Assembly: GCA_964498705.1 (NCBI GenBank)
Contig: CAZCHT010000003.1
Span: 960 to 64,959 of the forward strand
Source of the DNA: an uncultured Bdellovibrio sp.
Lineage (GTDB): Bacteria > Bdellovibrionota > Bdellovibrionia > Bdellovibrionales > Bdellovibrionaceae
Direction: 5' to 3'
DNA length: 64,000 bases
Shown here: piece after piece, positions 1 through 21,477 of the stretch
Layout of the letters: every line of letters begins with the position of its first letter
How positions within the stretch are numbered: position 1 is the first letter of the stretch
Position numbers and translations under genes: made by a program
Notes under the pieces: generated by a model
Database searches by the model: none
The model's input: only the letters and a program-made list of their open reading frames with translations
What the model was told of the DNA's origin: nothing

Positions 1-2
1 GA

Positions 3-3976: not shown

Positions 3977-4173
3977 ATACAAGCGGACAAGTTATTCCGG
4001 AGGGGCGCCGCTCACTGGGCCTAATTTTTTAATCAGACGCATGTACGTGTTGTCTCTCGATAGAACGATTCTTAATAGAACCCGTGAATAAGCTCCCCAA
4101 GATAAGGTTCTATTTTTTGTTAAGTCTCAAGCTGAGGCTTAAGATTTCCATAGTGGAAACCGACCATACATGT

Positions 4174-4503
4174 ATGGGAACAAAATTCCATGCTATATAT
4201 ATGATTGTGTTTACCCTATTGTCATCAGGCTGTACATGGAACGCTTCGCTAAATGGTTTAAGTGAATCTTCATCAGGAACAAGCGGTGATAAAGTTGGAT
4301 CAATCGGACTTGAATGTGCTGACAACACAGCGACCAGTAATACTTGTAAAGTTTCACAAGCGGGAAAGATCGTAACGTCTAGTATTAGGTTCAGGTTCAT
4401 ATCAAACGACAATGGCATCAAGTGCTTTAAGAGATGCGGGTGTTCAAGTGATTGTAAATTTGTCAGGGCAAACAATCTCGAATCAAATCACATTAGACAA
4501 TGA
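4174..4503 (+). pseudogene. Signal-peptide/lipobox-bearing N-terminal fragment, apparently the displaced 5' part of the DUF1566 gene (frameshift)
   Basis: ATG 4174 gives MGTKFHAIYMIVFTLLSSGC (signal peptide plus Cys), then Ser/Gly/Thr-rich sequence. This frame ends at 4503 after a junk-like tail. The +1 frame is open from 4376 and continues as the DUF1566 ORF. Confidence 0.4.
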
Positions 4504-5611: not shown

Positions 5612-5808
5612 TAATTTCGAATAACTTTTTGCATGCTAATTAAATCATTAATTCCAATCCTGTAGGCATTATATCAAATTTAATTCTTGTGATTTAAATT
5701 GTAGGTCACAATAGTCGTGGATCGTGTAAACAGAATCAATGTTGCTCGCAATCCCGTAAGAAAAATTCTGAATCTGATTTTTACTATTTTTACGGCTAGG
5801 GATGTTAC

Positions 5809-7068
5809 TTATTTTGATAGTATGACCAAAGGATGATGTCTTAACTCATTAGCCTGCATTTTTGATAGTTCTGGATATTCAAGAACTCGTGATGGAATTG
5901 GATCCATGATATTTGAGCTACCTTCATTCGAGTTAGTGTCGGTATAAAGATCATGAATTGTAGAGTTAATCTCATAAGTATGAGACAAGCCAAGATAGTG
6001 AAGAATTTCATGGGTTAATACTATTGCCAATTCATGCGGTGGTTGGGTAAAAGTTTCTCCAATTCCTAATATGACACCAAAGTTTTTAAAATTACTTTCT
6101 GTCAATGGTCCTGGTATTCCTGGTGAAAATCCGTAAACTCTACCATAACTTTCTAAATAGGTTTCTTTTGCTAAAAAAACATTTAATACAGGTCGTTTAG
6201 TTTGGTGGTTCTTACCAAAAAGGCTAAGAATTTGTCTATCAGAATCGACAATTAAATTGTCTGCAATTTCGGCGGTTTCATCAATTACAACTTTTACATT
6301 GGCCGGCTCTAAAATTCGATTCACGCGGGTAATTACTTCGTGAAATTCTGAATGCTTTTCATTCCATTCTCTGGCTCCGGAAAACAAGATCCGTAGTGGT
6401 AAAATAGCTGGAGCCCTTTTTGGCATTTGGGGCTTATAAGTTACTCGAATACTAACAGAGTGGTCCTTGAATTTGTCTTCGATGAGAGCTGCTATCTTGA
6501 ACGTATATCTTCCAGGTTTAATTTTGAATCCGCCACTGATCTCAGAAGTTAAAGCAAGCGAAGCAAAACCATTAAAAAACCCTGGTATCGAACGAACTGG
6601 TGATAAAAATGCAGCCATGGCATCAGGTGAATTGCCTAATAACTTTTGCAAACTCTGTTGATATTCTTTTGAGGGTGTAGATATCTTTTGCATATTTTCC
6701 ATAACTAATTCGTAACCGTCAGGATCACTAAGTGATTTAATTAAATAAATCTGTTTATCGGAACCCAGGATATTAATGTGAACACTGCCAGTACCCTTTG
6801 GAACATCTAAAGATATGGTCTCTGATGTGGAGCTTGTCATATCTATAACAAATTTTTCTTGAATGAGATTCCCTACTTGTTCTTTCGCGTAGCGATTCGA
6901 ATAGAATTTCATGCAACTAGAGTTTGTCATAGTAGCTGCTGAAGCTTTGGTATTAAATGAAAAGAAAGATAATATCATTAAAGCTATAATTGGAAACAAA
7001 GAATTACCGATCGGTAAAACAAATATTAAGATAAAGAAATAGCTTCTTTTCTCTTTAAACAAGGTCAC
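5809..7068 (-). CDS. Secreted metzincin-type zinc metalloprotease
   Basis: The HEILHYLGLSH motif matches the HExxHxxGxxH zinc-binding motif. An N-terminal hydrophobic segment is present, and a downstream NIMDP is a possible Met-turn. Confidence 0.7.
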   Translation of the reverse strand: MTLFKEKRSYFFILIFVLPIGNSLFPIIALMILSFFSFNTKASAATMTNSSCMKFYSNRYAKEQVGNLIQEKFVIDMTSSTSETISLDVPKGTGSVHINILGSDKQIYLIKSLSDPDGYELVMENMQKISTPSKEYQQSLQKLLGNSPDAMAAFLSPVRSIPGFFNGFASLALTSEISGGFKIKPGRYTFKIAALIEDKFKDHSVSIRVTYKPQMPKRAPAILPLRILFSGAREWNEKHSEFHEVITRVNRILEPANVKVVIDETAEIADNLIVDSDRQILSLFGKNHQTKRPVLNVFLAKETYLESYGRVYGFSPGIPGPLTESNFKNFGVILGIGETFTQPPHELAIVLTHEILHYLGLSHTYEINSTIHDLYTDTNSNEGSSNIMDPIPSRVLEYPELSKMQANELRHHPLVILSK

Positions 7069-7458
7069 TCCTAAGTCAAAGCTATAGATTCAATTTTATA
7101 GAATGAAATTCCATTGTCCGATAAATAAAATTGTGAGCCGATTATATCATTAGATTATGACACTTAGAAATTCTTTCCTAGCCTGCGATGCCAAGCCCAG
7201 TAAAGTTTGTAAGGGTGTCAACGTCTTAGACACTGGCCGTGGGCCAGATAGGTCACATCCCTTTCGGGCGATCGTGAAAGGGAAAGCTTGCAGCCTTGGG
7301 GGTCTTAAGACAATAAGCCTATTTTTGCTTGCTAGTGAATTAAATTAATACACCTGAGCTCAAATAGAATCTCATTTAAATTCTAAATTAAGCCATCTTT
7401 AAACTGATCGATTGGCAGAGTCTTGCATATTGAATTATCTTTATTAAAGGAGCCACTT

Positions 7459-7869
7459 ATGACTAAAACTCTTATTGCGACTATTAGTATATTTTTGGCG
7501 ATGACTTGTTTTGCAGCGGCAGGAGAAATTTCCGTTCTTCATCGCGGAGTAAATCCCAACGCCATCACAGTCAATGTTGATTATAGTATTTCACTTGGAA
7601 AAGAAACTAGTTACAGCAATAGAAATTATATAATGGACCTAGCAGATATGAATTCAAAAGTATTAGAAGCAAAAAGACAGGGACAGGTTGTCGATATTTT
7701 GATAGATAAGTCAGCCCAACGCTTCACTCTTGATGTAATTACAATGCAAGTAAGAGCCGCAACAAAAGAAGAACGAGAAAATTTGGTAACTACCACCCAA
7801 GATCAAAATTTAGCATTACAAGCTGAAATTATACAATTACGTGAAAAACTAAGAAGCCTTGGTCAATAA
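7459..7869 (+). CDS. Small secreted protein with C-terminal coiled coil, unknown function
   Basis: ATG 7459 is preceded by AAAGGAG and gives the signal peptide MTKTLIATISIFLAMTCFAAAGE. The C-terminus is heptad-like ([19 protein letters not shown]). Its last ~130 bp are duplicated at 20110-20242. Confidence 0.6.
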   Translation: MTKTLIATISIFLAMTCFAAAGEISVLHRGVNPNAITVNVDYSISLGKETSYSNRNYIMDLADMNSKVLEAKRQGQVVDILIDKSAQRFTLDVITMQVRAATKEERENLVTTTQDQNLALQAEIIQLREKLRSLGQ

Positions 7870-7915
7870 GACGATAGTTCTGCTATGAGAGCCTCAAGAG
7901 CCAGCGTTCTCTGTT
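7737..7915. repeat. Left copy of the 179-bp direct repeat (3' end of the 7459-7869 ORF plus a duplicated 50-bp 3' end of hisS)
   Basis: Aligns without gaps to 20110-20288 at a constant offset of 12373 bp. There are six mismatches (7742, 7767, 7789, 7793, 7809, 7815). Positions 7816-7915 are identical. Confidence 0.9.
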
Positions 7916-8006
7916 TCTTCAAATAAAAATTTATTTTTCAATTTGTTCATAGATCAAGGGTACATGAATAATTTAAAAAACCCGTTGATCGGTAACATAT
8001 TTAAAT

Positions 8007-8798
8007 TCAATCAAATAACTGAGGGTTCGCAGATTCTATTATTTCTTTAAAAGTTGAAAATAGTCTACTAGCCGGACCACCCCCCATTATTCTTCGATCA
8101 AAAGAAAGTAACAAGGGAATGCTTAAGGCGGCCTCAACGTTATTTTCAATAACTAGAGCTCTTTTTTCAACTTTCCCAAAAGAAAAGGTTAACGGCCAAG
8201 GCCATGTGGTCATAACAAGATCAGCTCCAGCTTTAGAAGGAGAGTTAACCCAAGCGGCGCATCCTCTATATTTTATCCAATAATAAGGACTCCAATAAGG
8301 CATATTAATCAAAATATTACTGAAGGGCCTTGGGATGTATTTTAAAACTCTCATGAATGTTTTAAATTTTGGATCATTGGCTTCATTACAATTCACAAGT
8401 GTTTGCAGTTCATTGGTTATTAAAGCTATTTTTTTTATTAGTGGCGAAGTAATGACGGCGGCATAGGCTTGTCCAGGAAGCGCCGGTAAAGATTTTTCTA
8501 CGGCTACACAAATGTCTATATTCTCAAACTGGTAGAGTCTTTTAAAGAAGGGTGGACCTAATATCGCTCGGTTAGCTTCAGGATGAAGTTTCATCGTCAT
8601 GGCCGCTGCTTTTATGACTAAGGCCGTATAGGATGGAGTTGCTTTACCTTGAGCTCGTAATAAATATCGCTGGTGATTCAAATTCTCTGCACAAGCAAGT
8701 GCGGTCATTGTAACCATATGTCCAGGTACTAAGATATCATTCATAGCCCAGGATGTTTTTTCTGCAGATGAAATGTTAATTTTGCTGAAGCTAGCCAT
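8007..8798 (-). CDS. Stand-alone 2-oxoacid dehydrogenase E2 catalytic-domain-like (CAT-fold) protein with the catalytic His replaced by Arg
   Basis: The 263-aa ORF aligns to the E2 catalytic domain only (PSYTALVIKAAAMTMKLHPEANR ... SFDRRIMGGGPASRLF versus canonical S.DHR.IDG...A.FL). It has no lipoyl or subunit-binding domains. Confidence 0.75.
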   Translation of the reverse strand: MASFSKINISSAEKTSWAMNDILVPGHMVTMTALACAENLNHQRYLLRAQGKATPSYTALVIKAAAMTMKLHPEANRAILGPPFFKRLYQFENIDICVAVEKSLPALPGQAYAAVITSPLIKKIALITNELQTLVNCNEANDPKFKTFMRVLKYIPRPFSNILINMPYWSPYYWIKYRGCAAWVNSPSKAGADLVMTTWPWPLTFSFGKVEKRALVIENNVEAALSIPLLLSFDRRIMGGGPASRLFSTFKEIIESANPQLFD

Positions 8799-8918
8799 TT
8801 AAACCTCTTTATTTGATTTATTAATGGTAACAGCGTGGGCTATTAGCTTGTGCGGTTTTGTGACTTTTTATAATTTTTTTGTTGTTGTGGGGGTAAGTTT
8901 ATAATTGAATACAAAATC

Positions 8919-9677
8919 ATGAATAATAATTGTCAATTGAGTATTAATACAAAAAGTTACGAATCTAAAGTTCAAAACATTAGTCCTGAAATGATGTTTA
9001 TGTCCAGGCAACAAAGTTATAAGAAAAATCAAAAACAAATAGAAGCCTATGGTGAACATTGGATGATAGCTTTTGCCGACTTAAAACCAGGCGAAATTGG
9101 CATAAGACATGGCCAACTGTCTATTCCTTTAAGTGGACCTTGTGGAATTCTAATAGGAACTAACTCTATTGTTGAATTTGAATTTCAAAAAACGGATATA
9201 AACTGGTATGCAATTAGCTCACTCAGTTTAAATCTACCACAATGCTTTCATGAGAAAGTTATCTTTTTTGAATGGGATAAACAAATACCTAAAAATTTTG
9301 AAACTATTTTTGACTCTATTAAATTAATGCCTAATAAAAAAGAGATAGAAATGCAACGCTACTCATCGGCTGTGGCGCTCAAAACAAAGCATTTCATAGA
9401 TAATAATTTTTCAGAAATATTGCTAATCACAGATTTAGCAAAAAAATTAAATTACTCTAGAAGTGTTATGACCAGGGAATTTACAAAAGCTTATGGAATT
9501 TCTCCGTTTGAATACCGTCAAAAAGTTCGAGTTTACAGAGCTGTTAGAGTGTTGGCAGCGGGAGCTAATGTTACTACAGCCCTTGTTGAATCAGGATTCT
9601 CATCCCAAACTCAATTTTTCCACCAATTTAAGAAACATATAGGTACTCAACCGTTTAATTATAAATATTCAAAATAA
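8919..9677 (+). CDS. AraC family transcriptional regulator (paralog A)
   Basis: The C-terminal double HTH is ITDLAKKLNYSRSVMTREFTKAYGISPFEYRQKVRVYRAV...GFSSQTQFFHQFKKHIG. It is divergent from the E2-like gene at 8007-8798. Confidence 0.85.
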   Translation: MNNNCQLSINTKSYESKVQNISPEMMFMSRQQSYKKNQKQIEAYGEHWMIAFADLKPGEIGIRHGQLSIPLSGPCGILIGTNSIVEFEFQKTDINWYAISSLSLNLPQCFHEKVIFFEWDKQIPKNFETIFDSIKLMPNKKEIEMQRYSSAVALKTKHFIDNNFSEILLITDLAKKLNYSRSVMTREFTKAYGISPFEYRQKVRVYRAVRVLAAGANVTTALVESGFSSQTQFFHQFKKHIGTQPFNYKYSK

Positions 9678-9690
9678 TACTCAAAAAAAA

Positions 9691-9713
9691 GCCCTTGTTT
9701 TTAGCAAGGGCTT
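9691..9713. terminator. Stem-loop terminator between the convergent AraC genes
   Basis: AGCCCTTG-tttttag-CAAGGGCT is flanked by A8 on the left, which reads as a T8 tail for minus-strand transcripts. Confidence 0.5.
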
Positions 9714-9789
9714 CGTGAAGTAATTTTTTTAAAACTATTTCATTAGATTAATAAGATTCAGTTTGCCTTCACTCATAAGTTTATTTTGT

Positions 9790-9806
9790 TATTTCGTCCT
9801 ATCCTC
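9790..9806 (+). repeat. 17-nt motif TATTTCGTCCTATCCTC, copy 1 (putative IS91-family element end)
   Basis: Identical 17-mers occur at 9790-9806, 11805-11821 and 17139-17155, all in the same orientation. Copies 2 and 3 sit just 3' of IS91-like transposase remnants. Confidence 0.6.
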
Positions 9807-9946
9807 AAAGAAGAAAAGTGTCATCTTGTTGGCAGCTTAATTTCAAATAATGAATTCAGCATTAAGATACTAAATACATTATTTTCAAGCTTAGGACTGA
9901 GTATTTTTTTAGTCGTCCTACTATTGAAAGGTTTATTTAAACAAGA

Positions 9947-10753
9947 TTAAATTATTCGACCCATCTGCCTATTAATTTTATATTGGTTAGGTACAGCATT
10001 TAAAATATTTTTAAAATGTACGATGAATTGGCTTGGATCAGAAAAACCAACTGCGTAAAGAGCTTCGGTAATAGTATGACCATATCTAACTTTAACTAAT
10101 GCTTCATGAATTCTAATTTTGTGTCGATATTCGACGGGTGAAATTCCATAGACTTTTGTAAAAGCCCTGGTCATCACTACTCTTGAATAATTTAATTCTT
10201 TAGCTATTGCAGAAATTTTCATCTCTTCGCGAAAGTGTAAATCAATATAGGCCTTTAATTTTTCGGCTACTGCAGACGGATAGCGCTCTTGAACAATCAC
10301 AGTCGCTTCTTTTAAACGCCCTAAAAGGTCATAAACATCTTGTTTAGTTTTTGGAATTGAAAATTCTGAGTTTGTTATAAATGTTGGGCTAGTGATATTG
10401 AATGGAATTTTAGAAATAGAGCCAATACAAGACCAGCTTAAAGGACCATCTTCTACGTGCATTTCCAATAAACTAAATGGAGGTTGAAATATTAAAGTAG
10501 GGCCATAAAGATCAACTAGTTGATTTCCACATCGCAACTTAACTCGGTCTTTTGGTAGGTTAGACAATGCAATAAACCAATCAGAAGCATAGGATTCATG
10601 ATAAATATTTTTTTTATATTGATGTGATTTTTCTGAATATAAGAGTTCATCATCAATAAGATGAACAGTAGCTTTATAATTTGATGTTGTAATAGTGGCC
10701 TCATTTTTTATTAAGAGGTCATCGTTAGGCCTTTGATCTAGTAAGCTATTCAT
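9947..10753 (-). CDS. AraC family transcriptional regulator (paralog B)
   Basis: HTH region IAKELNYSRVVMTRAFTKVYGISPVEYRHKIRIHEAL...GFSDPSQFIVHFK. The first ATG is at 10753 (MNSLLDQ), while the ORF track start 10792 is a TTG. It is divergent from the E2-like gene at 10826-11605. Confidence 0.85.
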   Translation of the reverse strand: MNSLLDQRPNDDLLIKNEATITTSNYKATVHLIDDELLYSEKSHQYKKNIYHESYASDWFIALSNLPKDRVKLRCGNQLVDLYGPTLIFQPPFSLLEMHVEDGPLSWSCIGSISKIPFNITSPTFITNSEFSIPKTKQDVYDLLGRLKEATVIVQERYPSAVAEKLKAYIDLHFREEMKISAIAKELNYSRVVMTRAFTKVYGISPVEYRHKIRIHEALVKVRYGHTITEALYAVGFSDPSQFIVHFKNILNAVPNQYKINRQMGRII

Positions 10754-10825
10754 ACATGAATAGTAGATAAGATATAAGTTACAAATCAACAAGTTTTATA
10801 AAAAATTAAGTTTCATGATTAATTT

Positions 10826-11605
10826 ATGGATAAACAAAATTATGAAATCGTTAACTCCGATAGTTTTTTTAAGGTAAATGCTTCAATTGTTGAGAATGAA
10901 ATTGATCTGAGCTCAACAGTAACCATGGTAAATCTTATAGATCTAACAAAGATTGAAGAAATACGAAGCTCATCAGTGGGCATAAAACCCAGTTACACAG
11001 TTTTTGTTGCAAAAGCTTTGGCAAAAAGCTTAGTCGATTTTCCAGAGATGAATAAAAGATTTTATAAGCCTTTTGGTTTTTTTCCTAGGGTGTTTCAAGA
11101 ATTTAAAAATGTGGATATGGCTATAGCATCTGAAGTAACGGACCCAAAGTTAGCACATGTTGCGTATATTGGTATAATGAAAGATGTGCAACATAAGACG
11201 CTGCAAGAAATTCAACAATGGCTATTAGAGTTTAGAAAAACTGAAGCAGTAGCACAATGGAAAATCTTTAGTGGAATTATTCTTAAGCTGCCAGTATTTT
11301 TATCAAAAATTATCATCAGATTGCCAGTCTATTTTCCAAGCCTGTGGGTAAAATACAGGGGAGGGGTGGCAATGATCAGCTCTCCAGCAAAGTATGGTGT
11401 TGACGGGCTTATTGCAGCCTGGAGCGCGCCAATTGGTGTCTCATTTGGTTATGTAAAAGAACGTGTCATTTCAAAAAATGGACAAATAGTTGCGGTACCC
11501 TCATTCAATTTAACTGTGAACTTTGACCGAAGAGTTTTTTCTGGCGCTCAAGGGGCCAGATTCATTGCAAGAATAAGCGAAATTTTAGAAAAAGCAGAGT
11601 ATTAA
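10826..11605 (+). CDS. Stand-alone E2 catalytic-domain-like (CAT-fold) protein with the catalytic His replaced by Arg (paralog 2)
   Basis: KPSYTVFVAKALAKSLVDFPEMNKR ... NFDRRVFSGAQGARFIARISEILE aligns with the E2 C-terminal ...FDHRVIDGADGARFI.... It is 259 aa and has no lipoyl domain. Confidence 0.8.
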   Translation: MDKQNYEIVNSDSFFKVNASIVENEIDLSSTVTMVNLIDLTKIEEIRSSSVGIKPSYTVFVAKALAKSLVDFPEMNKRFYKPFGFFPRVFQEFKNVDMAIASEVTDPKLAHVAYIGIMKDVQHKTLQEIQQWLLEFRKTEAVAQWKIFSGIILKLPVFLSKIIIRLPVYFPSLWVKYRGGVAMISSPAKYGVDGLIAAWSAPIGVSFGYVKERVISKNGQIVAVPSFNLTVNFDRRVFSGAQGARFIARISEILEKAEY

Positions 11606-11642
11606 TGTTTAAGCTGGCTGAGAAAAACGAATAACAAATTTT

Positions 11643-11821
11643 GTGTTTTTTGATTCTGAGTCTAAGAAAAAAGCACACTTCAACATCGATGTTGAAACCT
11701 GCATCAAATGCGGCGGTAAAATGAAAATTATTGCGGCCATCGAGGATCCAGAAGTGATTCGAAAAATCTTGGAGCACATGGGGCTATCACCAAAGCATGA
11801 ACAATATTTCGTCCTATCCTC
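11643..11821 (+). mobile_element. Remnant of an IS91-family (Y2 rolling-circle) transposase C-terminus plus element-end motif
   Basis: The translation ...NIDVETCIKCGGKMKIIAAIEDPEVIRKILEHMGLSPKHEQYF matches, from memory, the conserved C-terminal C..CGG.(M/L)KIIAAI...VI.KIL.HLGL block of IS91/ISCR transposases. No upstream catalytic part is present. It ends in the 17-nt motif. Confidence 0.6.
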
Positions 11822-11880
11822 GACTAGGCTTGACTTCTATGTCTGCGCTATTGCCAATAGTGATCTCCGCTTAGTAATTT

Positions 11881-12747
11881 TTAGAAAAAAAATCTTCTAT
11901 AAACCCAATCTTGAAGTATGATTCGACATTGATCTGGAAGTATTTTTTTTAAAAACCAGTTAATATGCGATTCGGTTCCAACTCTGATTCGAACTGGGAT
12001 ATTTTTTTTATTACATAATTTAATAATAGTATCAACAACAGCAGCAGGATCTTTTTCTATCTTTTTTTGAATAAATTCTAAAAATTTAGAAAACCTAATC
12101 ATCCGTTTTTCATATTGATAAAATTCATGATGAGATTCTTTAGAAACTTTAGAATTTTGTGAAAAACCGGTTTTGTAACCACCAGGTTCAATGGCACAAA
12201 CTTGAATTTTGAATATTGATAAATCATAATACAAAGCTTCAGTAAGACTATCAATAGCATGTTTTGAAGCACTATAAATTCCATAGAAAGGAAAAACATT
12301 GAATCCAACTAAACTACTAAGATTTATGATTCGACCTTGTTTTTTTCTTAGAAGTGGCAAAAGTTTTTGAATAATAAACAGGGGCGCAAAAAAATTAGTC
12401 TCGAATTGCATTCTAATTTGTTTTTCTTCTTGAAGTTCCACTGGCCCCAAAAGTCCAAAGCCTGCATTATTAATTAAAATATCAAGACCATCAGGAAAAT
12501 AATTAAAAGCCTCAATTAAGCAAGATTCTAAACTTTCTCTATTGTCTAAATGGCCATCTAATAAAATAAGTTGTTTATTGGCTATTTGAGTTGAAAATTC
12601 AGAAAAAATGTTTTTTCCACGAATCATGCCACCTCTTATTACAGCGACAACAAAATAATTCTGTTCGAGTAATTTTTTAGTAACCTGAAAGCCAAAACCA
12701 CTGGAAACACCTGTTATAAAAACACTTTTTTTTGTAATTTGATACAT
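11881..12747 (-). CDS. Short-chain dehydrogenase/reductase (SDR) family oxidoreductase
   Basis: Motifs VFITGVSSGFGF (TGxxxGxG), NNAG and YSASKHAI (YxxxK). ATG 12747 is preceded by GAAAGG. Confidence 0.85.
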   Translation of the reverse strand: MYQITKKSVFITGVSSGFGFQVTKKLLEQNYFVVAVIRGGMIRGKNIFSEFSTQIANKQLILLDGHLDNRESLESCLIEAFNYFPDGLDILINNAGFGLLGPVELQEEKQIRMQFETNFFAPLFIIQKLLPLLRKKQGRIINLSSLVGFNVFPFYGIYSASKHAIDSLTEALYYDLSIFKIQVCAIEPGGYKTGFSQNSKVSKESHHEFYQYEKRMIRFSKFLEFIQKKIEKDPAAVVDTIIKLCNKKNIPVRIRVGTESHINWFLKKILPDQCRIILQDWVYRRFFF

Positions 12748-12785
12748 AGAAAAACCTTTCAAGGGTATACTGTTCAAAATATTTG

Positions 12786-13415
12786 CTATTTAATTTTTAC
12801 AGCGGGAACTCCAGCCCAGACCTCACCAGTTTTAATAATAGAATTTTTTGTGACTAAAGACATGGCGCCTACGATAGCATTATCTTCAATGACAACACCT
12901 GACAATACGACACTATTGGCTCCTATTGTAACGTTTTTCCCAATAGTAATTTTTTTATGGCCAAATTTACGTCCCTCTTGGTAATGCGGTACTAGAAGTG
13001 CTCTATTTCCAACAAAACTACCTTCTCTAATAACAATTAAATGAGGATCAAATAATAATCCTGCTGAAAAACTTTGTAGACTCATTTTTCCACCGAAAAG
13101 ACGATTAGTAAATGGACTTAAATATACAGGAATAATATTGATGTTTTTTAGCGGATGAAAATAAGTTAACCAAAAACACAGATTAATCATCCAAATTGTT
13201 TCCGCTCTGCTTCCTTCTTTAAGATCTCCTTCAGGTATTGGAATTAAAAAAAGGATAATTCTGTATACCAAAACATTGATTAATAAAAATATACTAATCA
13301 AATAAAAAACATTTGTTTCAAAACATTTCTGTTCTGTTAACAATTTGGTTAATACAAAGACAATTAATTGTAGCAATATAAAAATAAAAAGTGGTAATGG
13401 TCTTAGCTTTCTCAT
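12786..13415 (-). CDS. Membrane-anchored hexapeptide-repeat (left-handed beta-helix) acyltransferase
   Basis: It has N-terminal hydrophobic helices. The C-terminal LbH repeats are ITIGKNVTIGANSVVLSGVVIEDNAIVGAMSLV...GEVWAGVPAVKIK, typical of WcaF/Maa-like O-acetyltransferases. Confidence 0.75.
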   Translation of the reverse strand: MRKLRPLPLFIFILLQLIVFVLTKLLTEQKCFETNVFYLISIFLLINVLVYRIILFLIPIPEGDLKEGSRAETIWMINLCFWLTYFHPLKNINIIPVYLSPFTNRLFGGKMSLQSFSAGLLFDPHLIVIREGSFVGNRALLVPHYQEGRKFGHKKITIGKNVTIGANSVVLSGVVIEDNAIVGAMSLVTKNSIIKTGEVWAGVPAVKIK

Positions 13416-13511
13416 ACAGAAAATATAAGATGATCACTTTTTTATTATTGGCGTTTTGTGACTTCTTTATCCAAAGCACCTAAAAACTGGACTATAAACG
13501 TACTTGAGTGT

Positions 13512-14279
13512 TTAAATTCTATTTTTATTAAATGGTGAGTATTTTTTTGGTGTCAGTTTAAAATGTTTTTTAAACTGATAAATAAATTGTTTGGGGTCAC
13601 TATAGCCAATATTTTCAGATATTTCAGTAATAGGAAATCCTAAGTTCATAAGAGCTAGGGCTTCAAAAATTCTTAACTTATGGCGATATTCTATAGGCGT
13701 CAGGTTGTAGGATTTTTTAAAAGATCTGCTTAATACTTCCCTTGAAGTTTTCAACTCATTTGCTATTTGATAAATTTTTTCGTTTTTTAAGTGGTAGGTG
13801 TTTTCAATAATTGCTTTTAGCTTTTCAGCTATTGCAGAAACGACTATCTGTTGTTTTAATTCTTCACCATTTTTAAACTCAGAGATAAGATTCATTACTT
13901 GGTTTCTGTTTTTAGGTAATGAACATGTTTTTTCCTGATCTATTATCATTGGATTTTTATAAGAATTATCAAGAGGCCAACAAGAAGTTATGGTTGTAAA
14001 ATCAATTTTAATCCCACTTGGTACTACCGTTTCTAATAAAGAAAAAGGAGGACAGAAAATGATTTTATCTGATTCAATAGCAAGATACTTATTCTCAGAT
14101 CTTATAAGTAAGCCTAAACCTTCTGCATTATTAATAAATAAAATACACCAGCTAGATCCAAAACAATCTATGGATACTTTATTTTTTCTTATTTGACTAT
14201 TATAGTTTATGAAAAAATGATCATCTATAATTTTATTACGTTGTGTATAGCTTGCTGTTTGAATTAGATAATCTTTCAT
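13512..14279 (-). CDS. AraC family transcriptional regulator (paralog C)
   Basis: HTH region IANELKTSREVLSRSFKKSYNLTPIEYRHKLRIFEAL...GYSDPKQFIYQFKKHF. The N-terminal region is similar to paralogs A and B (SAIAEKLKAIIE). Confidence 0.85.
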   Translation of the reverse strand: MKDYLIQTASYTQRNKIIDDHFFINYNSQIRKNKVSIDCFGSSWCILFINNAEGLGLLIRSENKYLAIESDKIIFCPPFSLLETVVPSGIKIDFTTITSCWPLDNSYKNPMIIDQEKTCSLPKNRNQVMNLISEFKNGEELKQQIVVSAIAEKLKAIIENTYHLKNEKIYQIANELKTSREVLSRSFKKSYNLTPIEYRHKLRIFEALALMNLGFPITEISENIGYSDPKQFIYQFKKHFKLTPKKYSPFNKNRI

Positions 14280-14573
14280 TTCAAAATTTCAGATTTTGGT
14301 ATTACGTAAAATATATCTAAGAAAGGCACCATATCCTTTTAGTATATTTTTTTCGTTTAGAAGTCCATGTTTTTTATAAGCTTAACTGATCACTCACTCG
14401 ATAAAATATATTGTGAAAATCAATCCCAATTTGCTGGATAACACTTTGGCACACAGACGGCCCAAGTTATCTAGAATAATTTTTTTCAAATGTAGGTTTT
14501 ATGAAAATGACAAATTTGGCCGAATCTTACGGATACCCTAAGTCAAATGATAGAATTATGAGTACTGAGATAG

Positions 14574-15365
14574 CTAATCATTTGGTTTCATAACTTGCTT
14601 TTTATGAGCAATTATATGTTTTGGATTTACTCCTAGCCAGCTTTTAAACTGTCTAAAAAAATTACTGTACTCTTCAAAGCCAGATTCGTAACAGGCGTCA
14701 ATAAGTGGTTTATCTTTCATGCTGAGTTCTTTAACAGCCGCATTTAACTTAAGCCGGTTCAGATATTCATTGGGGTTTACTCTATAGCATTTTTTAAATA
14801 GATGAGTAAGGCTGCTATAATTCATTTCAAGTTCCTCACAAAAATCTTTAATTTTTCTTCCAGTTAAATAGTTTTCATCAATATGATGTTTTAACTTTAA
14901 TGCTAGTTTTGAATTGTTAAATTCTGTTGGCAGTATAGCTAAATATGTTTTTTGATTTTCAATATGTTTTAATAGTTCTATGTCTGATTGAAAATAAGAT
15001 TCAGCACTCCAAGGTATAACAAAGCCATTATTTCTTAATTTAGTCGGTAGCTCTATCTCGCCACGGAAAGCTGTCCATCGGATAATGCCAGGAGATAGTT
15101 TCCAATGAATTATATGTTTTGACGGTAAAAAGATCGCAATAGGGCTTTGAAATAACTTTTCATCCTCAGGAAATTGTATACGGATTAAATTGTCATTGGT
15201 CTCTGAAATAAATAAAAACCAGGAGCTTGGAAAAACATCAAAGCTGGACCTTTCTTGTGGGATACATTCAACTCTCTCAAGATACTGAAACTGGGGATTT
15301 ACCTGTAAGACATGAGTTGTATAATTCTTAAAGTTTACTGAATAGCTATCCATTGTATCCCACAT
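14574..15365 (-). CDS. AraC family transcriptional regulator (paralog D, most divergent)
   Basis: HTH region FCEELEMNYSSLTHLFKKCYRVNPNEYLNRLKLNAAV...GFEEYSNFFRQFKSWLG. It is divergent from the GMC oxidoreductase gene. Confidence 0.8.
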   Translation of the reverse strand: MWDTMDSYSVNFKNYTTHVLQVNPQFQYLERVECIPQERSSFDVFPSSWFLFISETNDNLIRIQFPEDEKLFQSPIAIFLPSKHIIHWKLSPGIIRWTAFRGEIELPTKLRNNGFVIPWSAESYFQSDIELLKHIENQKTYLAILPTEFNNSKLALKLKHHIDENYLTGRKIKDFCEELEMNYSSLTHLFKKCYRVNPNEYLNRLKLNAAVKELSMKDKPLIDACYESGFEEYSNFFRQFKSWLGVNPKHIIAHKKQVMKPND

Positions 15366-15435
15366 GTTTTATTTATAATCATAAAACTTCAATTTTTGCA
15401 TAGTTGCATCCCTAAAACCCACTTAGCATTAAATC

Positions 15436-17034
15436 ATGGATCAAGAGATAAGTCAGGTTGAAAATAAAATTTGGGATAACGTGATTATTGGTACTGGAAT
15501 GGGGGCGGCAGCGCTGGGATATGCTTTGGCTAAAGCAGGGCAAAGCGTTTTGTTTTGTGAAAAAGGACTACTTCGAGATGGAAATAAATCTAATTTAATT
15601 GGTTTTGCTGAGAAAAATCTTTCTAATTCTTTGGATATTGAGTCACGAAAAGAAATTTTTAATAAAATGGGTAGGTTTTGTGACCCCCTTTTTGAAGCTA
15701 AGGGCGTTGGAAAGAAGTCAAAGATTCAGAAACTATTTCCAATGTTAGGTGTTGGCGTCGGTGGATCTTCGGCTATTTATGGGATGGTCCTTGAAAGATT
15801 TTTTCCATATGATTTTGAAAATAATGATTGGCCAATAAAATTTTCAGATTTAGAGCCATTTTATCGTCAAGCTGAAAGTTTATTTGAAGTTCATGGAGAA
15901 CCAGATCCTCTTAAATTTGAGCAAAACTTTTCTTATATAAATCGCAACTATCAAGAAGTTCATCCAGTAAATGATGTGCTTATAAAATACTTGAAAAAAA
16001 ATAGATATCATCCGTATCGGCTTCCACTTGCGAACAAAAAAATTAATGGTTGTAATACTTGCCAAGGTTTTCTGTGTAATAAGAATTGCAAAAATGATGC
16101 TTGGAATATTTTAATACAGCCAGCTTTGAAATTACCTTTTTCAAAGCTTTTAGTCGAAGCAGAGGTGATATCACTTGAAGCTAATTCAGAACAAGTTCAT
16201 CTGGCTAATATGAAAATGAACAATAAAAATTTTAAGATCAAAGGAAAACGATTTATTCTAGGTGCGGGGGCAATAAATACTCCAAAAATTTTATTACAAT
16301 CAAAATCTTTGTATCATCCTGATGGGATTGGAAATCATTATTCTGTTGTTGGAAAATTTTTGATGAGACATCTGGTGGATCTATATGCTCTGAATTTGAA
16401 AAAGTCTTATGGACAAACAGGAAGTGTGAAAGAGTTTGGAATTAATGATTTTTATGCTTTTGAAAACTTTAAGTTTGGAAATATTCAGTCTTTTGGAGCC
16501 TTACCTGAAGAGGATCTTATAGCTCGTGATTTGATTTTTAAGCTCACGCAAAATAAAAAAAGTTTAAGTTCGTTATCAGTGCAAACTTTTTTACCTATGG
16601 TAAAAAAAATCATCAAATACATAACTCAACCTTCAACTTTGTTAGCGGCAACGATGGAGGATGAGCCTCTGGCTGAAAATTCTATTTATTTTAATGAAGT
16701 AAATGAGCTGTATTTAAGATATCATATTAGTTCTAGGGACCAAGAAAAACTAAAACTTTTTAGAGGTCATATTTTAGAACTGTTTAAACCTTTTAGCCCT
16801 CGGATTATTAAAATGGCAGAGTCTAATGAAATGTTAGGGCATATTTGTGGAACATGTAGAATGGGCCGTGATCCAAGAAAAAGTGTTATAGATCAATACA
16901 ATAAGGTCCATGGATTGAAGAATCTTTATATTGTAGATTCATCTTTTCTACCAACAAGTGGAGGAACTAATCCTGCTTTAACTTTAGTTGCAAATAGTTT
17001 AAGAGTTGCAGATCATTTGACAAAAAATCAGTGA
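15436..17034 (+). CDS. GMC family FAD-dependent oxidoreductase
   Basis: The N-terminal FAD fold is DNVIIGTGMGAAALGYALAKAGQSVLFCEKG. It has a Cys-rich insert CNTCQGFLCNKNCKND. The C-terminal GMC motif is GTCRMGRDPRKSVIDQYNKVHGLKNLYIVDSSFLPTSGGTNP. Confidence 0.85.
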   Translation: MDQEISQVENKIWDNVIIGTGMGAAALGYALAKAGQSVLFCEKGLLRDGNKSNLIGFAEKNLSNSLDIESRKEIFNKMGRFCDPLFEAKGVGKKSKIQKLFPMLGVGVGGSSAIYGMVLERFFPYDFENNDWPIKFSDLEPFYRQAESLFEVHGEPDPLKFEQNFSYINRNYQEVHPVNDVLIKYLKKNRYHPYRLPLANKKINGCNTCQGFLCNKNCKNDAWNILIQPALKLPFSKLLVEAEVISLEANSEQVHLANMKMNNKNFKIKGKRFILGAGAINTPKILLQSKSLYHPDGIGNHYSVVGKFLMRHLVDLYALNLKKSYGQTGSVKEFGINDFYAFENFKFGNIQSFGALPEEDLIARDLIFKLTQNKKSLSSLSVQTFLPMVKKIIKYITQPSTLLAATMEDEPLAENSIYFNEVNELYLRYHISSRDQEKLKLFRGHILELFKPFSPRIIKMAESNEMLGHICGTCRMGRDPRKSVIDQYNKVHGLKNLYIVDSSFLPTSGGTNPALTLVANSLRVADHLTKNQ

Positions 17035-17040
17035 TTTTTC

Positions 17041-17155
17041 TGGCCCACCAAAGCATGAACAATACTTCCAGCAGCACTTCGAGATGAACATCCCTCAGTA
17101 AATCAAAACCTAGATGTTAGACTTGAACAATTCGGCCTTATTTCGTCCTATCCTC
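17041..17155 (+). mobile_element. Second IS91-family transposase 3' remnant plus element-end motif
   Basis: CACCAAAGCATGAACAATA(C/T)TTC is shared with 11789-11810. Here the reading frame continues PPKHEQYFQQHFEMNIPQ* and the 17-nt motif follows at 17139-17155. The 11.8-kb copy lacks the intervening ~88 bp. Confidence 0.55.
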
Positions 17156-17184
17156 TCGAGGTGGAGTTTGTACAATTAGTTCAA

Positions 17185-17330
17185 CTGCCTAATACGGTGT
17201 TGATATGCTGGTTGCTGCATGGAGTTGACCGATTAGGATCTCATTTAATCTTACTCTAAATTTTGACAGAAGAATAGTTTCTGGCGCTCAAGGAGCGAAA
17301 TTGATAGCCCGCATTTCAGAAATTCTATAG
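17185..17330 (+). pseudogene. Decayed 3' fragment of a third E2 catalytic-domain-like gene
   Basis: The translation VDMLVAAWS*PIRISFNLTLNFDRRIVSGAQGAKLIARISEIL* aligns to the C-terminus of the 10826-11605 product. It has an in-frame TGA at 17226-17228, an internal deletion of about 19 codons and no 5' part. Confidence 0.8.
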
Positions 17331-17427
17331 AATGGCGCATTCTAAGAATTAACTTCAAATTCTAGTTTACAATATAAATAAATCCATAAACACTGATCGC
17401 AATAAAGTACTTTGCTGAGGTGTTCAT

Positions 17428-19119
17428 ATGAAAGCTAAATTACGACAACGGGTTCTATATTTGATCTTTATGTTTTTACTAATTGGAATGAGTCAAAAGT
17501 TGATGGCAGCGGATAAAGAAGCTCTCAGAATTGGAATGATTCAGGAATCTGACACGCTAAATCCGTTACTATCCAGTAACTCAGCAGGACGATATATTCT
17601 AGGTTTCTTGCACAGGCCCTTTGTTTCTCTTGATAATGATAAAGAGTTTAAACCGTTAATTGTAAAAAAAATTCCAAATTTAAAAGATAAATCACTTAAG
17701 GTCTTTACTACAAATAAAGTAAAAAAAATAAAAGCAACTTGGGAATTTGTCGACGGTTTAAGGTGGAATGATAATGTTCCTGTTACTTGTAAGGATTTAC
17801 ATTTTTCATGGCAAGTGGGATTAAATCCAAATGTTACTTTGGCATCAAAAGAGTCTTTTGAGAAAATAGAAAAAATTGAATGGGAGGAAAAGACGCCTAC
17901 AAAATGTAACGTCACTTATAAGGAGGCACATTGGAATTTTTTTTTGAACATGCCCGATTTGTTACCGGCTCATCTTGAAGAAAGTATTTATAACAAATAC
18001 AGCAGCAGTAAAGAGGGGTACGAAAGAAATTCCAATTATCAAAGAGAACCTACTAAAAAAGGGCTTTGGTTTGGTCCCTATATAATTTCAGAAGTTAAGC
18101 TGGGTTCACATTTGATTTTAACTGCTAATGAAAACTTTTATGGAAAAAAGCCAAAAATTAAAAACATCATAATTAGATATATCACGAGTTCTGCCTCATT
18201 GGAGTCAAATTTAAGATCAGATACAATAAACCATATAGCTCGATTGGGATTATCTTTAGATCAGGCGTTAATTTTTGAAAAGAAAATTCAGGCCGAGAAA
18301 TTACCTTTCGAGGTCAAGTTTCAAGACGGAATGACTTATGCCCATATAAATATTAATTTAACTCACTCTATACTTAAAGACCAAGGTGTGCGCCAAGCTC
18401 TATCCTATGGCTTAAATAAACAAGAGATTGTAGACAGTTTATTTGAAGGTAAAGCTACAATCGCCTATCATTTGATTTCACCGCAGGATCCTTTGTACAC
18501 AATGGATCCTACCACCATTAATAAGTATGAATCGGACAAAAAAAAGGCTCGAAAGATTTTAGATGATATTGGCTGGAAAGTTGGGTCGGATAGTTTTCGT
18601 TATAAAGAAGGTCAGAAGTTGAGGTTCACTTTGGTTGCTGCTGGAGGCGCAAAAATAAACGAGACTATTCAGACACTGATACAATCCCAATGGAAAGAAA
18701 TTGGAGTTGATTTGAAAATTAAATCGGAAACAGGGCGTACGTTATTTTCTGAGACATTACCAAAACAAAAATTTGATATGGCTCTAGTTTCCTGGGCTAG
18801 TTTTCCCCAAGAATCAGTCAGTTCGGTTCTTAATTCTAAGAATATTCCTTCGGATAGTAATATGTGGGCAGGGCAAAACTATGCTGGTTACAAAAACGAA
18901 CGAGTTGACCAGTTGACAGATCATTACGGAAGTGAATTTGATTTTGAGAAGCGAAAAAAAAACATGCGCGAAGTTATGAGCCTATATACAAAAGAAGTTC
19001 CGGCTATCCCCCTATACTTTAGGAAGGAAAATTCAGTTGTACCTGTGGGTATGAAAAACTTTGAATTAACTGGACATTTATTTTTTGAAAGTTTGAAATC
19101 CGAAAATTGGGAGCTTTAA
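17428..19119 (+). CDS. ABC transporter substrate-binding protein, family 5 (peptide/nickel/opine type), orphan
   Basis: 563 aa with signal peptide MKAKLRQRVLYLIFMFLLIGMSQKLMAA. Length and overall pattern are typical of OppA/DppA-like SBPs. No permease or ATPase genes are adjacent. Confidence 0.7.
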   Translation: MKAKLRQRVLYLIFMFLLIGMSQKLMAADKEALRIGMIQESDTLNPLLSSNSAGRYILGFLHRPFVSLDNDKEFKPLIVKKIPNLKDKSLKVFTTNKVKKIKATWEFVDGLRWNDNVPVTCKDLHFSWQVGLNPNVTLASKESFEKIEKIEWEEKTPTKCNVTYKEAHWNFFLNMPDLLPAHLEESIYNKYSSSKEGYERNSNYQREPTKKGLWFGPYIISEVKLGSHLILTANENFYGKKPKIKNIIIRYITSSASLESNLRSDTINHIARLGLSLDQALIFEKKIQAEKLPFEVKFQDGMTYAHININLTHSILKDQGVRQALSYGLNKQEIVDSLFEGKATIAYHLISPQDPLYTMDPTTINKYESDKKKARKILDDIGWKVGSDSFRYKEGQKLRFTLVAAGGAKINETIQTLIQSQWKEIGVDLKIKSETGRTLFSETLPKQKFDMALVSWASFPQESVSSVLNSKNIPSDSNMWAGQNYAGYKNERVDQLTDHYGSEFDFEKRKKNMREVMSLYTKEVPAIPLYFRKENSVVPVGMKNFELTGHLFFESLKSENWEL

Positions 19120-19130
19120 TTTTAAAGATA

Positions 19131-19847
19131 TTATTTTTCTTTAATAAATGTCATTACCCCTTTAGCGTCATAATGTGGGCAGATGTCTTTGTCATTGAAC
19201 TCAAGAAACAATTCATTTTTAATTCTATAAATTTCGTAGTCACGATTTGCCTCTTTTTTAAAATAGCCGCCAAAATCATATTTCATGTAGGTTGAAACCG
19301 AAGCTTGAATACCAAAATTTTGTAAAAAGAAGGATTCTGCAAAAGTCTTAAAACTAAATTTTTGATATTCTGAAAATTCCCCGTTACACTTATTGATAGC
19401 TTTATAATTTACGTTAGAATCGACAAGGATACCTTTTAGTGAATAATGGTTGATACCATTACCTGTGGATGAATAATCAATTTGGACTTTATTTTTTGAC
19501 CAAATAAAAGGATTTTTATTGTCACGATCTGCATTCATAGTGGTTTGATTAAGCTTACAACTACTTTGAAGAACTGCTTTTTCGACATATCGTTCAGGCT
19601 TCAAACCATTATTAGAAATTGTATTTATTCTTAGTTCCACTTCCACATTAAAAATTCGAGGATCAATATCGACAATTGTTCCATAATAATAGGTAGGCTC
19701 ATCTTTAACAAAATAACGACACAGCATCTGTGTTTTTCTCCAGACGCCATCTAAACCATCCGTTGTAACTTGATTTACTTGAGAAAAAACAGAATTGGTT
19801 ATCAATAACAAACCTGTTAAGAGTAAGACAAGATTGATTTTTTTCAT
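19131..19847 (-). CDS. Secreted protein, unknown function
   Basis: 238 aa with signal peptide MKKINLVLLLTGLLLITNSVFSQ. No recognisable domain. Confidence 0.55.
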   Translation of the reverse strand: MKKINLVLLLTGLLLITNSVFSQVNQVTTDGLDGVWRKTQMLCRYFVKDEPTYYYGTIVDIDPRIFNVEVELRINTISNNGLKPERYVEKAVLQSSCKLNQTTMNADRDNKNPFIWSKNKVQIDYSSTGNGINHYSLKGILVDSNVNYKAINKCNGEFSEYQKFSFKTFAESFFLQNFGIQASVSTYMKYDFGGYFKKEANRDYEIYRIKNELFLEFNDKDICPHYDAKGVMTFIKEK

Positions 19848-20109
19848 AAATTGACCTCAACTTCTATATTCGAAATTAAGGCCATTGCCGAAACGAACCT
19901 ATTCTAGCTTAAGAACCAACAACTGACTGATAAAACTACACAAGTTCAAAATTTGTCTTAATAAATGCGAAATGGACGAATTGCTTTACTAGCTTTCCTA
20001 TCCGAGTAGACATTCTTTTGAAGAGGAATTATTCCTGCCAAAGCGGCATTGAAATTCAATGGGGGCTTAGGTGAATAAATAGGTCAGCCCATGCCTTCAC
20101 TCTGGACGC

Positions 20110-20288
20110 AATTATAATGCAAGTAAGAGCCGCAACAAATGAAGAACGAGAAAATTTGGTAGCTATCACCCAAGATCAAAAATTAGCGTTACAAGCTGAA
20201 ATTATACAATTACGTGAAAAACTAAGAAGCCTTGGTCAATAAGACGATAGTTCTGCTATGAGAGCCTCAAGAGCCAGCGTTCTCTGTT
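20110..20288. repeat. Right copy of the 179-bp direct repeat (pseudo-fragment of the 7459-7869 ORF 3' end plus the functional hisS 3' end)
   Basis: See the left copy. Weaker homology to 7670-7736 continues leftward to about 20041 (for example GTCAGCCCA..C.TTCACTCT). Confidence 0.9.
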
Positions 20289-21477
20289 CACCAGTACTCA
20301 TGATTTTGAAACCAAATTCTTTTTTCTCGACTTCTTGTGAGCCGATAATAATTGTGTAGTGGGCGTTTTTGTTAGAGGCTTTTTTCATTTTTTTGCCTAC
20401 GTTGCCACCATAGATAATTTCAATTTTGAATTTTGTCTCAGACCGCAGTCGACTAGCTAATCGCAATGATTCAATTTCTCCCACTTCGTCAGCTGGTACA
20501 AGTGCGATCAGTTTTAAATCTTCTGTCAAAAGAGATTTATCCGATAACTCTACTAAACGTTCAACGCCAGCCGCCCAGCCTACACCCGGAGTTTTAGGAC
20601 CGCCCATTGTTTCGATAAGTCCATCATAGCGACCACCCGCAAGCACGGTTCCTTGTGCACCCAGTTCTGTAGTCACAAACTCAAAAACTGTATGGGTATA
20701 GTAATCAAGCCCGCGCACTAGTTGAGATGATTTCTGGTAAGGAATTTCAAGAATATTAAGTCCGTTAATCAGTGAATCAAAATATTTTTTAGAAGCTTCA
20801 TTCAAAGAGCCTTCTAATTTAGGTGCGCCTTCGTTGATTTTCTTATCACCTTCATCTTTAGAATCTAAAATTCGCATTGGATTTTTTTCTAAACGAACCT
20901 TTGAATCCGCTGATAAATCGTTTTTGAATTTTTCATAATAAGTGACCAAAGTTTCGCGATAGGCAGCACGCGACTCTAAATCACCCAAGGTGTTGATCAA
21001 TAGGTTACATTTTTTTTCAATGCCGATCGATTTTAAAAGTTCATAGCCCAATTGCAAACATTCGATGTCCATCAAGTACGACTCAATTCCTAAAACTTCC
21101 ACTCCGATTTGGTGAAACTGGCGCAAGCGGCCTTTCTGTGGACGTTCGTAACGAAACATAGGACCGCAGTAGTATAGTTTCAAAGGAATTTTTTGAGCCA
21201 AGCCTTCTGAAATAAATGCACGCGCAATGCCGGCAGTGCCTTCGGGTCTTAGAGTCAGTGATTCATCTGATCGATCTTTAAATGTATAGGTTTCTTTGCT
21301 GACGACGTCCGACGTTTCGCCCAATGTGCGATGAAAAACTTCAGAATGTTCGAATATAGGTGTTCTGATTTCACCGAATCCATATCTTTGTGCTTTATCA
21401 TAAAAAGCACGCTCCATATTTCTAAAATAACTGCTTTCCTGTTCAAACCAATCTTGGGTGCCACGTACTCTTTGCAT
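20236..21477 (-). CDS. hisS: Histidine--tRNA ligase
   Basis: Class II aaRS/HisRS motifs [33 protein letters not shown] and AGGRYDGL, plus a C-terminal anticodon-binding domain. Confidence 0.95.

Follow-up and report, generated by a model that had tools for sequence, protein, structure and literature searches.

A 12.37-kb genomic island without its own recombinase beside hisS of an uncultured Bdellovibrio, possibly the product of a Campbell-type insertion

The genome of an uncultured Bdellovibrio sp. (GenBank assembly GCA_964498705.1) carries a 12.4-kb segment that is bracketed by direct repeats and lies between a small open reading frame (ORF) and the convergent gene hisS, which encodes histidyl-tRNA synthetase. 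The stretch of 64,000 nucleotides that was analysed here (contig CAZCHT010000003.1, positions 960 to 64,959 of the forward strand) is named the window in the following, and all coordinates refer to it. Our data support the view that this segment was inserted as a discrete block of foreign composition between the small ORF and hisS. They also support that the partial duplication flanking it is the scar of one reciprocal crossover, which was either of the Campbell type or site-specific. Between these two we favour, with moderate confidence, that positions 7916-20288 represent a 12.37-kb genomic island without its own recombinase, which was inserted by a Campbell-type single crossover of a circular DNA. 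The cargo of the island is a mosaic of AraC-regulated accessory-metabolism modules with three end-remnants of the IS91 family between them. The coordinates of all features are listed in Table 1.

The two direct repeats comprise 214 nt each and align without gaps at an offset of 12373 with 14 mismatches (93% identity). They are composed of two parts, since all 14 mismatches are confined to the first 114 nt, here named the arm, whereas the remaining 100 bases, the core, are identical (14/114 vs 0/100 mismatches; Fisher p = 1e-4). A reading made from the sequence alone had described repeats of 179 nt. Its offset, its six mismatches between 7737-7915 and the right copy (at 7742, 7767, 7789, 7793, 7809, and 7815) and its 100 identical last bases were all reproduced, and only the repeat itself turned out to be longer. 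The degraded homology that it had followed leftward to about 20041 is not supported, as left of ~7700 only 5-6 out of 20 bases are identical, which corresponds to random sequence; beyond ~7700/20075 about 10 further bases align, but only with an indel. Each repeat contains the 3' end of the small ORF (stop codon at 7867-7869) and the final 53 nt of hisS, which runs in the opposite direction, with the two stop codons overlapping by 7 nt in TCAATAA. The intact small ORF is located on the left outer side and the intact hisS on the right, exactly as had been proposed. The right arm is a 12%-diverged copy of the small-ORF 3' end and holds a fragment ORF of 41 aa (20117-20242). A manual codon comparison of the two arm copies was uninformative (3 synonymous vs 8 non-synonymous changes). 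In either copy, one half of the core is without function, and therefore selection cannot explain an identical core next to a diverged arm. With selection excluded as the cause, the core must have been homogenised by recombination or conversion. Neither a third copy of the core or of an attachment (att) site nor a tRNA, tmRNA or other RNA gene as target is present within the 64 kb.

The compositional break coincides with the repeats. The repeat unit 7916-20288 has a length of 12,373 bp, and the GC content of the island is 0.329, compared with 0.405-0.411 on its right side. Of all 12-kb stretches of the window, the one starting at 7751 is lowest in GC. By tetranucleotide usage the island lies at a distance of 0.33 from the remainder of the window, as against 0.10-0.13 for ordinary or core windows. 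The right compositional edge is sharp, whereas the left one is blurred because 6001-8000 is also AT-rich (0.36). Hence the higher AT content of the interior, which had been noticed by eye, is borne out by windowed GC as well as by tetranucleotide distance.

The origin of the junction became apparent from ten relatives with HisS identities of 72-97% (L010-L016, L119, L122, L123). In all ten the convergent gene p872 (815-874 aa) adjoins hisS and is followed by lysS wherever the contig reaches. The small ORF is absent in all of them, and among 5.8 billion proteins its only homologues are those of its own cluster. The nucleotide homology of the relatives to the window extends from window position ~31 kb down to ~20249 and ends 13 nt before the hisS stop, inside the core, and nothing of window positions 1-20248 was found downstream of hisS in the ten relatives. 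The hisS stop is thus a lineage-specific synteny breakpoint (20236-20249). Because the small ORF is an orphan and p872 abuts hisS in the relatives, the small-ORF/hisS junction itself is derived and lineage-specific, which leaves this narrow lineage as the only possible source of the arm borne by the island. Since the right arm is a 12%-diverged copy of this orphan, the donor would be a sister lineage with the same junction rather than a broad-range element with hisS as attachment site. The integration into the 3' end of hisS that the sequence-only reading had suggested can therefore be kept as far as the scar of a single crossover is concerned, but the target is no conserved hisS attachment site, as p872 takes this place in the relatives. 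Similarly, the search for an empty site in close relatives fails at the species level, where the small ORF is absent, and is informative only at the strain level. A locus considered as the organism's own p872-lysS pair (P0002) belongs to another relative with the ancestral gene order, and the relocated copy was not located.

Public metagenomes allowed the junctions to be followed at the strain level. Many short contigs of this organism were recovered by exact-protein look-ups and were sorted by the diagnostic alleles flanking the core. At 7815 the left copy has A and the right copy G, and at 7916 the island has T and hisS has C. The left junction (attL: left arm, core, island) is present in seven contigs and the right junction (attR: right arm, core, hisS) in six. 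These contigs are independent, derive from different samples and assemblers, and show 99.8-100% identity. Furthermore, the Logan unitig L103 covers the whole interior (7886-20218) and is bounded by the core at both ends. With six to seven independent contigs per junction and a unitig running from core to core, the structure in the metagenome-assembled genome is therefore not an artefact. Besides these canonical contigs, one contig, L002, has the arrangement of an empty site (attB-type: left arm, core, hisS), and four contigs, L094, L098, L100, and L101, have that of a circle or a tandem (attP-type: right arm, core, left end of the island). All five agree base for base with the predicted products of a crossover within the core. 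L002 stems from ERZ27249659, L101 from ERZ27257527, L098 and L100 from JGI 3300005982 and SRR5571005, and L094 from JGI 3300014350, which is probably one sample with SRR5576005 and ERZ795034. L002 links hisS directly to the intact small ORF with all left-copy alleles present, and no complete AT1 or hyp238 gene of the island was recovered from the same sample. The empty site expected from the sequence-only reading thus has a candidate, which comes from a low-coverage assembly, is possibly a mis-join across the core and is no proof. A scan of the JGI metagenomes with the core yielded only three contigs, all previously recovered, and no further junctions. The attL contig L109 (8,740 nt) differs from the window solely in carrying the right-copy allele T at 7767, which is one of the 14 diagnostic positions; this reflects a short patch of gene conversion between the repeats or else bubble collapse at low coverage.

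Two further observations concern the same set of contigs. L113 (window 7819-9368; sample ERZ27257524) begins within the core, 3 nt from its edge, and carries the core polymorphism 7884 T>A beside the left end of the island, whereas the attR core of this sample (L102) has T at this position. If phased with attL, this polymorphism could discriminate real from chimeric junctions in the reads. Moreover, L090-L092, which come from three assemblies, all begin at window position 107, which suggests multi-copy or hard-to-assemble DNA to the left; no recovered contig matches window 1-106.

In a Campbell insertion, one crossover in a shared segment leads to hybrid direct repeats, and the reverse reaction regenerates the empty site and the circle. 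The allele pattern of attL, attR, L002, and L094-L101 fits this scheme exactly. The circle would have carried the cargo and about 214 bp copied from the small-ORF/hisS junction, and it would stem from a sister lineage in which this junction was already present. It would then have recombined with the chromosome in one reciprocal crossover, most simply a RecA-dependent one, inside the present 100-bp identical core, so that the left copy would retain the chromosomal arm and the right copy the incoming, 12%-diverged arm. Both convergent genes are intact on the outer sides because the crossover duplicated their junction, and the same repeats might also delete or circularise the island. The identity tract runs to the very end of the homology, which is expected from branch migration or heteroduplex formation with mismatch repair and favours the homologous route. 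The lack of a recombinase favours this route as well, and the single right-copy allele of L109 is suggestive of it, as a conversion patch would give such an allele. A Campbell insertion is, however, a mechanism and not a family of elements, and it leaves aside both the formation of the circle and its entry into the cell.

Several points weigh against this explanation. By itself, a single homologous crossover does not produce an identical core; either mismatch repair or prior identity of the donor core has to be added. A 100-bp identity beside diverged arms is also the classical look of att sites of elements with a recombinase. The explanation does not account for how the first circle arose, and no circular intermediate was demonstrated at the read level. 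Furthermore, the five non-canonical contigs all come from low-coverage assemblies and could be mis-joins across the 100-nt core. The attP-type contig from JGI 3300014350 shares its contig ends with ERZ795034, in which the same region is canonical (the SPAdes contigs of ERZ795034 have ~4.5x coverage). L100 had to be dismissed as evidence for a circle, since its k=31 Logan path over the 100-nt repeat needs no junction-specific k-mers and such paths arise from random loss of competing edges. We hold it about equally probable that at least one non-canonical junction is real and that none is. The empty-site and circle or tandem contigs are therefore suggestive, being consistent with deletion or circularisation via the repeats without proving it. 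A more far-reaching idea is that the island is an active non-autonomous element, which exists in integrated, absent, and circular or tandem states in wastewater-type populations by means of an unidentified recombinase acting in trans on the overlapping ends of the two convergent genes or of unusually frequent RecA exchange over the 100-bp core, and whose cargo was stitched together by an undescribed IS91-family element from predatory bacteria. This appears possible, but on the doubtful side.

No gene for a recombinase of the tyrosine, serine or DDE type was detected by Pfam, neither among the ORFs of at least 80 aa in 202-23866 nor among 20 large ORFs to the right, out of 29 there; the remaining nine include genes syntenic with the relatives. 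This is in line with the sequence-only reading, which had seen no integrase or recombinase gene. The sole match to Phage_integrase is sub-threshold and lies inside an AraC protein (E = 0.0034, 17.6 bits vs a cutoff of 27.1). There is no room for a hidden recombinase, because the non-coding gaps within the island are all <400 nt. Relaxases, a type IV secretion system, oriT, and other transfer or mobilisation genes gave no Pfam or NCBIfam matches. Neither an excisionase nor decayed modules of an integrative and conjugative element (ICE) or integrative and mobilizable element (IME) have left a remnant in the island or the 64-kb window, and no cognate element was found. A match to the consensus of the XerD arm plus spacer of dif within 3 mismatches is absent from the whole window, and scans of viral contigs with the core and with the 18-nt IS91 motif described below were empty.

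The IS91-like debris noted before is indeed present and can be specified as three end-remnants in the same orientation, all inside the island. An 18-nt motif, TTATTTCGTCCTATCCTC, has three copies, all on the plus strand and all within the island, against a chance expectation of 0.12. Residues 4-62 of the ORF at 11643-11921 match the C-terminus of IS91-family transposases at 50-67% identity. What survives of the transposase is a C-terminal stretch of ~34-60 aa (11652-11828) and a tail of 18 codons (17046-17102). As remnants 2 and 3 share the same layout of tail, spacer, and terminal motif, with an internal deletion of ~75 nt in remnant 2 relative to remnant 3, the three are 3'-end remnants of one IS91-family element type. 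An intact HUH (Y2) rolling-circle transposase gene or a terIS was not found, and nothing else in the window or the compared loci aligns. The terminal motif shows no fold signal of a subterminal palindrome (z-scores 1.0 and 1.7) and no adjoining CTTG or GTTC, the following bases being AAAG, GACT, and TCGA. The remnants fall outside the definition of oriIS, which requires one or more subterminal palindromes next to a tetranucleotide of the CTTG or GTTC type (PMC13181058). The stop codon of the gene for a GMC-family oxidoreductase lies 11 nt ahead of remnant 3. An unrelated metagenome contig of 179 kb (L120, GC 0.34) encodes a homologue of this oxidoreductase with 83% identity and shares only the AraC4-GMC gene pair with the window (window 14610-17038, L120 9174-11606; 84% nucleotide identity). 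The homology stops 4 nt past the GMC stop codon, just before remnant 3, and therefore at least one remnant marks a seam between modules of different origin. L120 is likely a relative of the donor of the AraC4-GMC module. In L120 the pair adjoins RHS-repeat genes and is without IS91 traces.

How the island came into its site can also be explained in other ways. The least probable one, which we consider very unlikely, is that there was no insertion at all, and that the structure reflects either a false join of two loci by the assembler at the shared repeat or a tandem duplication of the junction in situ, with subsequent divergence of the copies. In its favour, the contig is metagenome-assembled and the core acts as a repeat node in several assemblies, with L097 ending at 20288 and L103, L106, and L115 breaking inside the core. 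However, both junctions are crossed by the independent contigs described above, and the Logan unitig spans the interior. Furthermore, an in-situ duplication predicts even divergence instead of the two-part pattern and leaves 12 kb of foreign composition unexplained. Considerably stronger, albeit still tentative, is the alternative of a site-specific integration by a tyrosine or serine recombinase that was lost or is located elsewhere, with the att site within the 100-bp core. The island would then resemble a cis-mobilizable element (CIME), that is, a decayed or non-autonomous element, which keeps attL and attR and could be moved by a related element in trans or, upon accretion, in cis. Direct repeats at the 3' end of a housekeeping gene that is preserved, and a perfectly identical core with a sharp boundary to diverged arms, would fit well, and a precedent is GIsul2/CR2-sul2 at the guaA 3' end, where an integrase drives mobilisation of an ISCR-linked unit via extra att sites (PMC9376610). 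All four junction types are found in public contigs, including the four of circle type, which if real would need efficient excision; these are, however, perhaps mis-joins. Neither the island nor the rest of the window contains a gene or remnant for a recombinase, excisionase, relaxase or transfer function, no cognate element is known, and a third att copy is missing from the window. Moreover, the 100-bp identity is far longer than typical recombinase cores and reaches exactly to the end of the homology, and the target junction is restricted to this lineage.

An ISCR-like origin is rather a variant of the favoured Campbell-type insertion, which names the source of the circle. An IS91-family element would have generated a one-ended rolling-circle product with neighbouring DNA, which was rescued by homologous recombination, and the transposase genes would have been deleted later. 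For class 1 integrons linked to ISCR1 such a route has been proposed. The three remnants are restricted to the island and share one orientation. Furthermore, the captured AraC4-GMC module lies on the transposase-upstream side of remnant 3, since this remnant begins where the homology to L120 ends. This is what one-ended transposition predicts, as it places captured DNA upstream of the transposase, on the side of terIS, with the IS as its boundary (PMC13181058). Duplicated flanking segments are documented around ISCR1, where complex class 1 integrons have partial duplications of the 3'-conserved segment (PMC3575428), and on its right side the repeat ends in hisS at a GTTC tetranucleotide (20286-20289). 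However, a rolling-circle product would be expected to terminate exactly at an ori end, with which neither boundary of the island coincides, and there is no intact transposase or terIS, nor a palindrome or a following GTTC or CTTG at the motif. Since no remnant is located at an island end, the last one being 2.9 kb away from the right repeat, we regard this scenario as a minority variant and as improbable.

Among known systems, the island is most readily compared with CIMEs, which keep attL and attR, lack integration and transfer genes, and have decayed from an ICE or IME whose cognate integrase recognises the att sites (PMC5704250). Such elements are known together with tandem accretion at a gene 3' end from the islands related to ICESt1 and ICESt3 at fda of Streptococcus thermophilus (PMC5704250). 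The island described here likewise has attL and attR while genes for integration and transfer are absent; it shares the att-like direct repeats with a housekeeping 3' end, the accessory cargo, and the potentially excisable unit. In contrast to CIMEs, no cognate ICE or IME is known here and no decayed conjugation or integration modules are present. Moreover, there is a 100-bp identity with a 114-bp diverged arm instead of a short core, the target is lineage-specific, and the host is a Bdellovibrio-like predator lineage and not a Firmicute as for the ICESt islands. Like the ISCR1 integrons and CR2-sul2, the island is a mosaic of IS91-family sequence and captured genes, a partly duplicated flanking segment brackets the captured region, and circular intermediates are invoked, which are then rescued by homologous recombination or an integrase. 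Unlike these, it has three short 3' remnants, none of which abuts the duplicated segment, no intact rcr/tnpA, no resistance genes, and ends without oriIS palindromes and target tetranucleotide. Integrative mobile elements exploiting Xer (IMEX) have no recombinase of their own, exploit XerCD at dif, and are flanked by direct repeats. The island shares the lack of an own recombinase and the direct-repeat flanks with them, but its site consists of two overlapping gene ends and not of the terminus, and neither core nor window has a dif-like sequence, which speaks against an Xer-dependent IMEX.

Table 1. Features of the island and its junctions in window coordinates.
Feature	Position	Strand	Remarks
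Small ORF	7459..7869	+	136 aa from ATG; 148 aa from TTG at 7423; signal-peptide-like N-terminus; orphan; intact
Left direct repeat (attL)	7702..7915		arm 7702-7815 with chromosomal alleles; core 7816-7915
hisS 3'-end fragment within left repeat	7863-7915	-	non-functional
Unique island cargo	7916..20074		12,159 bp, GC 0.329
AT1, stand-alone 2-oxoacid dehydrogenase E2-like acyltransferase domain	8007..8798	-	PF00198, 1.4e-11; divergent from AraC1
AraC1 regulator	8919..9677	+	Pfam HTH_18, HTH_AraC
IS91 remnant copy 1	9789..9806	+	motif TTATTTCGTCCTATCCTC only
AraC2 regulator	9947..10792	-	35% identity to AraC1; divergent from AT2
AT2, second E2-like acyltransferase-domain protein	10826..11605	+	30% identity to AT1
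IS91 remnant 2	11652..11821	+	transposase C-terminal region (ISVsa3 TnpA residues 436-469 of 497) and terminal motif
Short-chain dehydrogenase/reductase (SDR)	11881..12777	-	
Hexapeptide-repeat acyltransferase	12786..13415	-	hydrophobic N-terminal half
AraC3 regulator	13512..14279	-	
AraC4 regulator	14574..15365	-	divergent from GMC oxidoreductase; in 2.4-kb module common to L120
GMC-family (choline dehydrogenase-like) flavoprotein oxidoreductase	15436..17034	+	
IS91 remnant 3	17046..17155	+	last 18 transposase codons (PPKHEQYFQQHFEMNIPQ and stop), 55-nt spacer, terminal motif
Pseudogene, C-terminus of third AT2-like acyltransferase	17195..17335	+	73% repeat match; in-frame stop, internal deletion
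Family-5 extracellular solute-binding protein	17428..19119	+	SBP_bac_5, 1.3e-57
hyp238, hypothetical secreted protein	19131..19847	-	238 aa, no family match
Right direct repeat (attR)	20075..20288		arm 20075-20188 island-borne; core 20189-20288
hisS (histidyl-tRNA synthetase)	20236..21477	-	413 aa, intact

The cargo was annotated with Pfam and NCBIfam and checked for defence functions with PADLOC. In total it comprises four AraC regulators, two E2-like acyltransferase-domain proteins and one acyltransferase pseudogene, an SDR, a hexapeptide transferase, a GMC oxidoreductase, a family-5 solute-binding protein, and one secreted hypothetical protein. Several of these genes are arranged as divergent regulator-enzyme pairs. 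The paralogues within the island are old (23-35% identity) and lack further copies in the rest of the window, and no cargo protein reached an equivalog cutoff. Permease or ATPase genes are not found near the gene for the solute-binding protein, which is thus an orphan. The three resources yield only metabolic and regulatory families, and no phage structural or replication, plasmid, or defence genes. A defence island was rejected, as no cargo protein matched the PADLOC library and the single weak and non-specific match was to the small ORF, outside the island. E2 enzymes carry a catalytic D-H-R motif, and at this position AT1 and AT2 read D-R-R (FDRRIMGG and FDRRVFSG, respectively); going by these residues, both may be catalytically inactive or repurposed. 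Some samples show decay of the cargo: in L005 the AraC1 gene is broken into 135 + 116 aa (at about window 9269), and the hyp238 gene is frameshifted and split into 51 + 187 aa in L096 and L097.

To the left of the junction the window contains an aminotransferase gene and a gene similar to dehydroquinate (DHQ) synthase (202-2437), followed by genes for orphan secreted proteins and an M43-like peptidase (5809-7068) in 2451-7458. The neighbourhood of hisS is generally flexible. L012 and L016 have ~1.4 kb of extra DNA between hisS and p872 (L012 11242-12792, with an ORF of 516 aa in L012), and L014 has a gene for a protein of 1072 aa between p872 and lysS (14063-17281). In relatives, transposase genes of the IS200-like (Y1) and IS110 families lie <10 kb from hisS (L011 19000-19623; L119 543-1253 and 18429-19529); the window contains none of either type.

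Taken together, the segment is a real and fairly ordinary genomic island without integrase and with generic cargo, which leaves current concepts unchanged either way. If empty and circular forms were confirmed at the read level, it would be a tractable case of the mobility of an island without recombinase, whereas otherwise it would represent a single old Campbell insertion that has left a permanent scar. Public data contain both of its junctions, together with a candidate for the empty site and one for the circle junction. The island shows that the 7-nt overlap of two convergent genes can be occupied with both genes undamaged, and it links IS91-family debris to module seams outside the setting of antibiotic resistance. 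As little is documented on the acquisition of accessory genes by Bdellovibrio-like predators, it provides a cleanly delimited example for these organisms.

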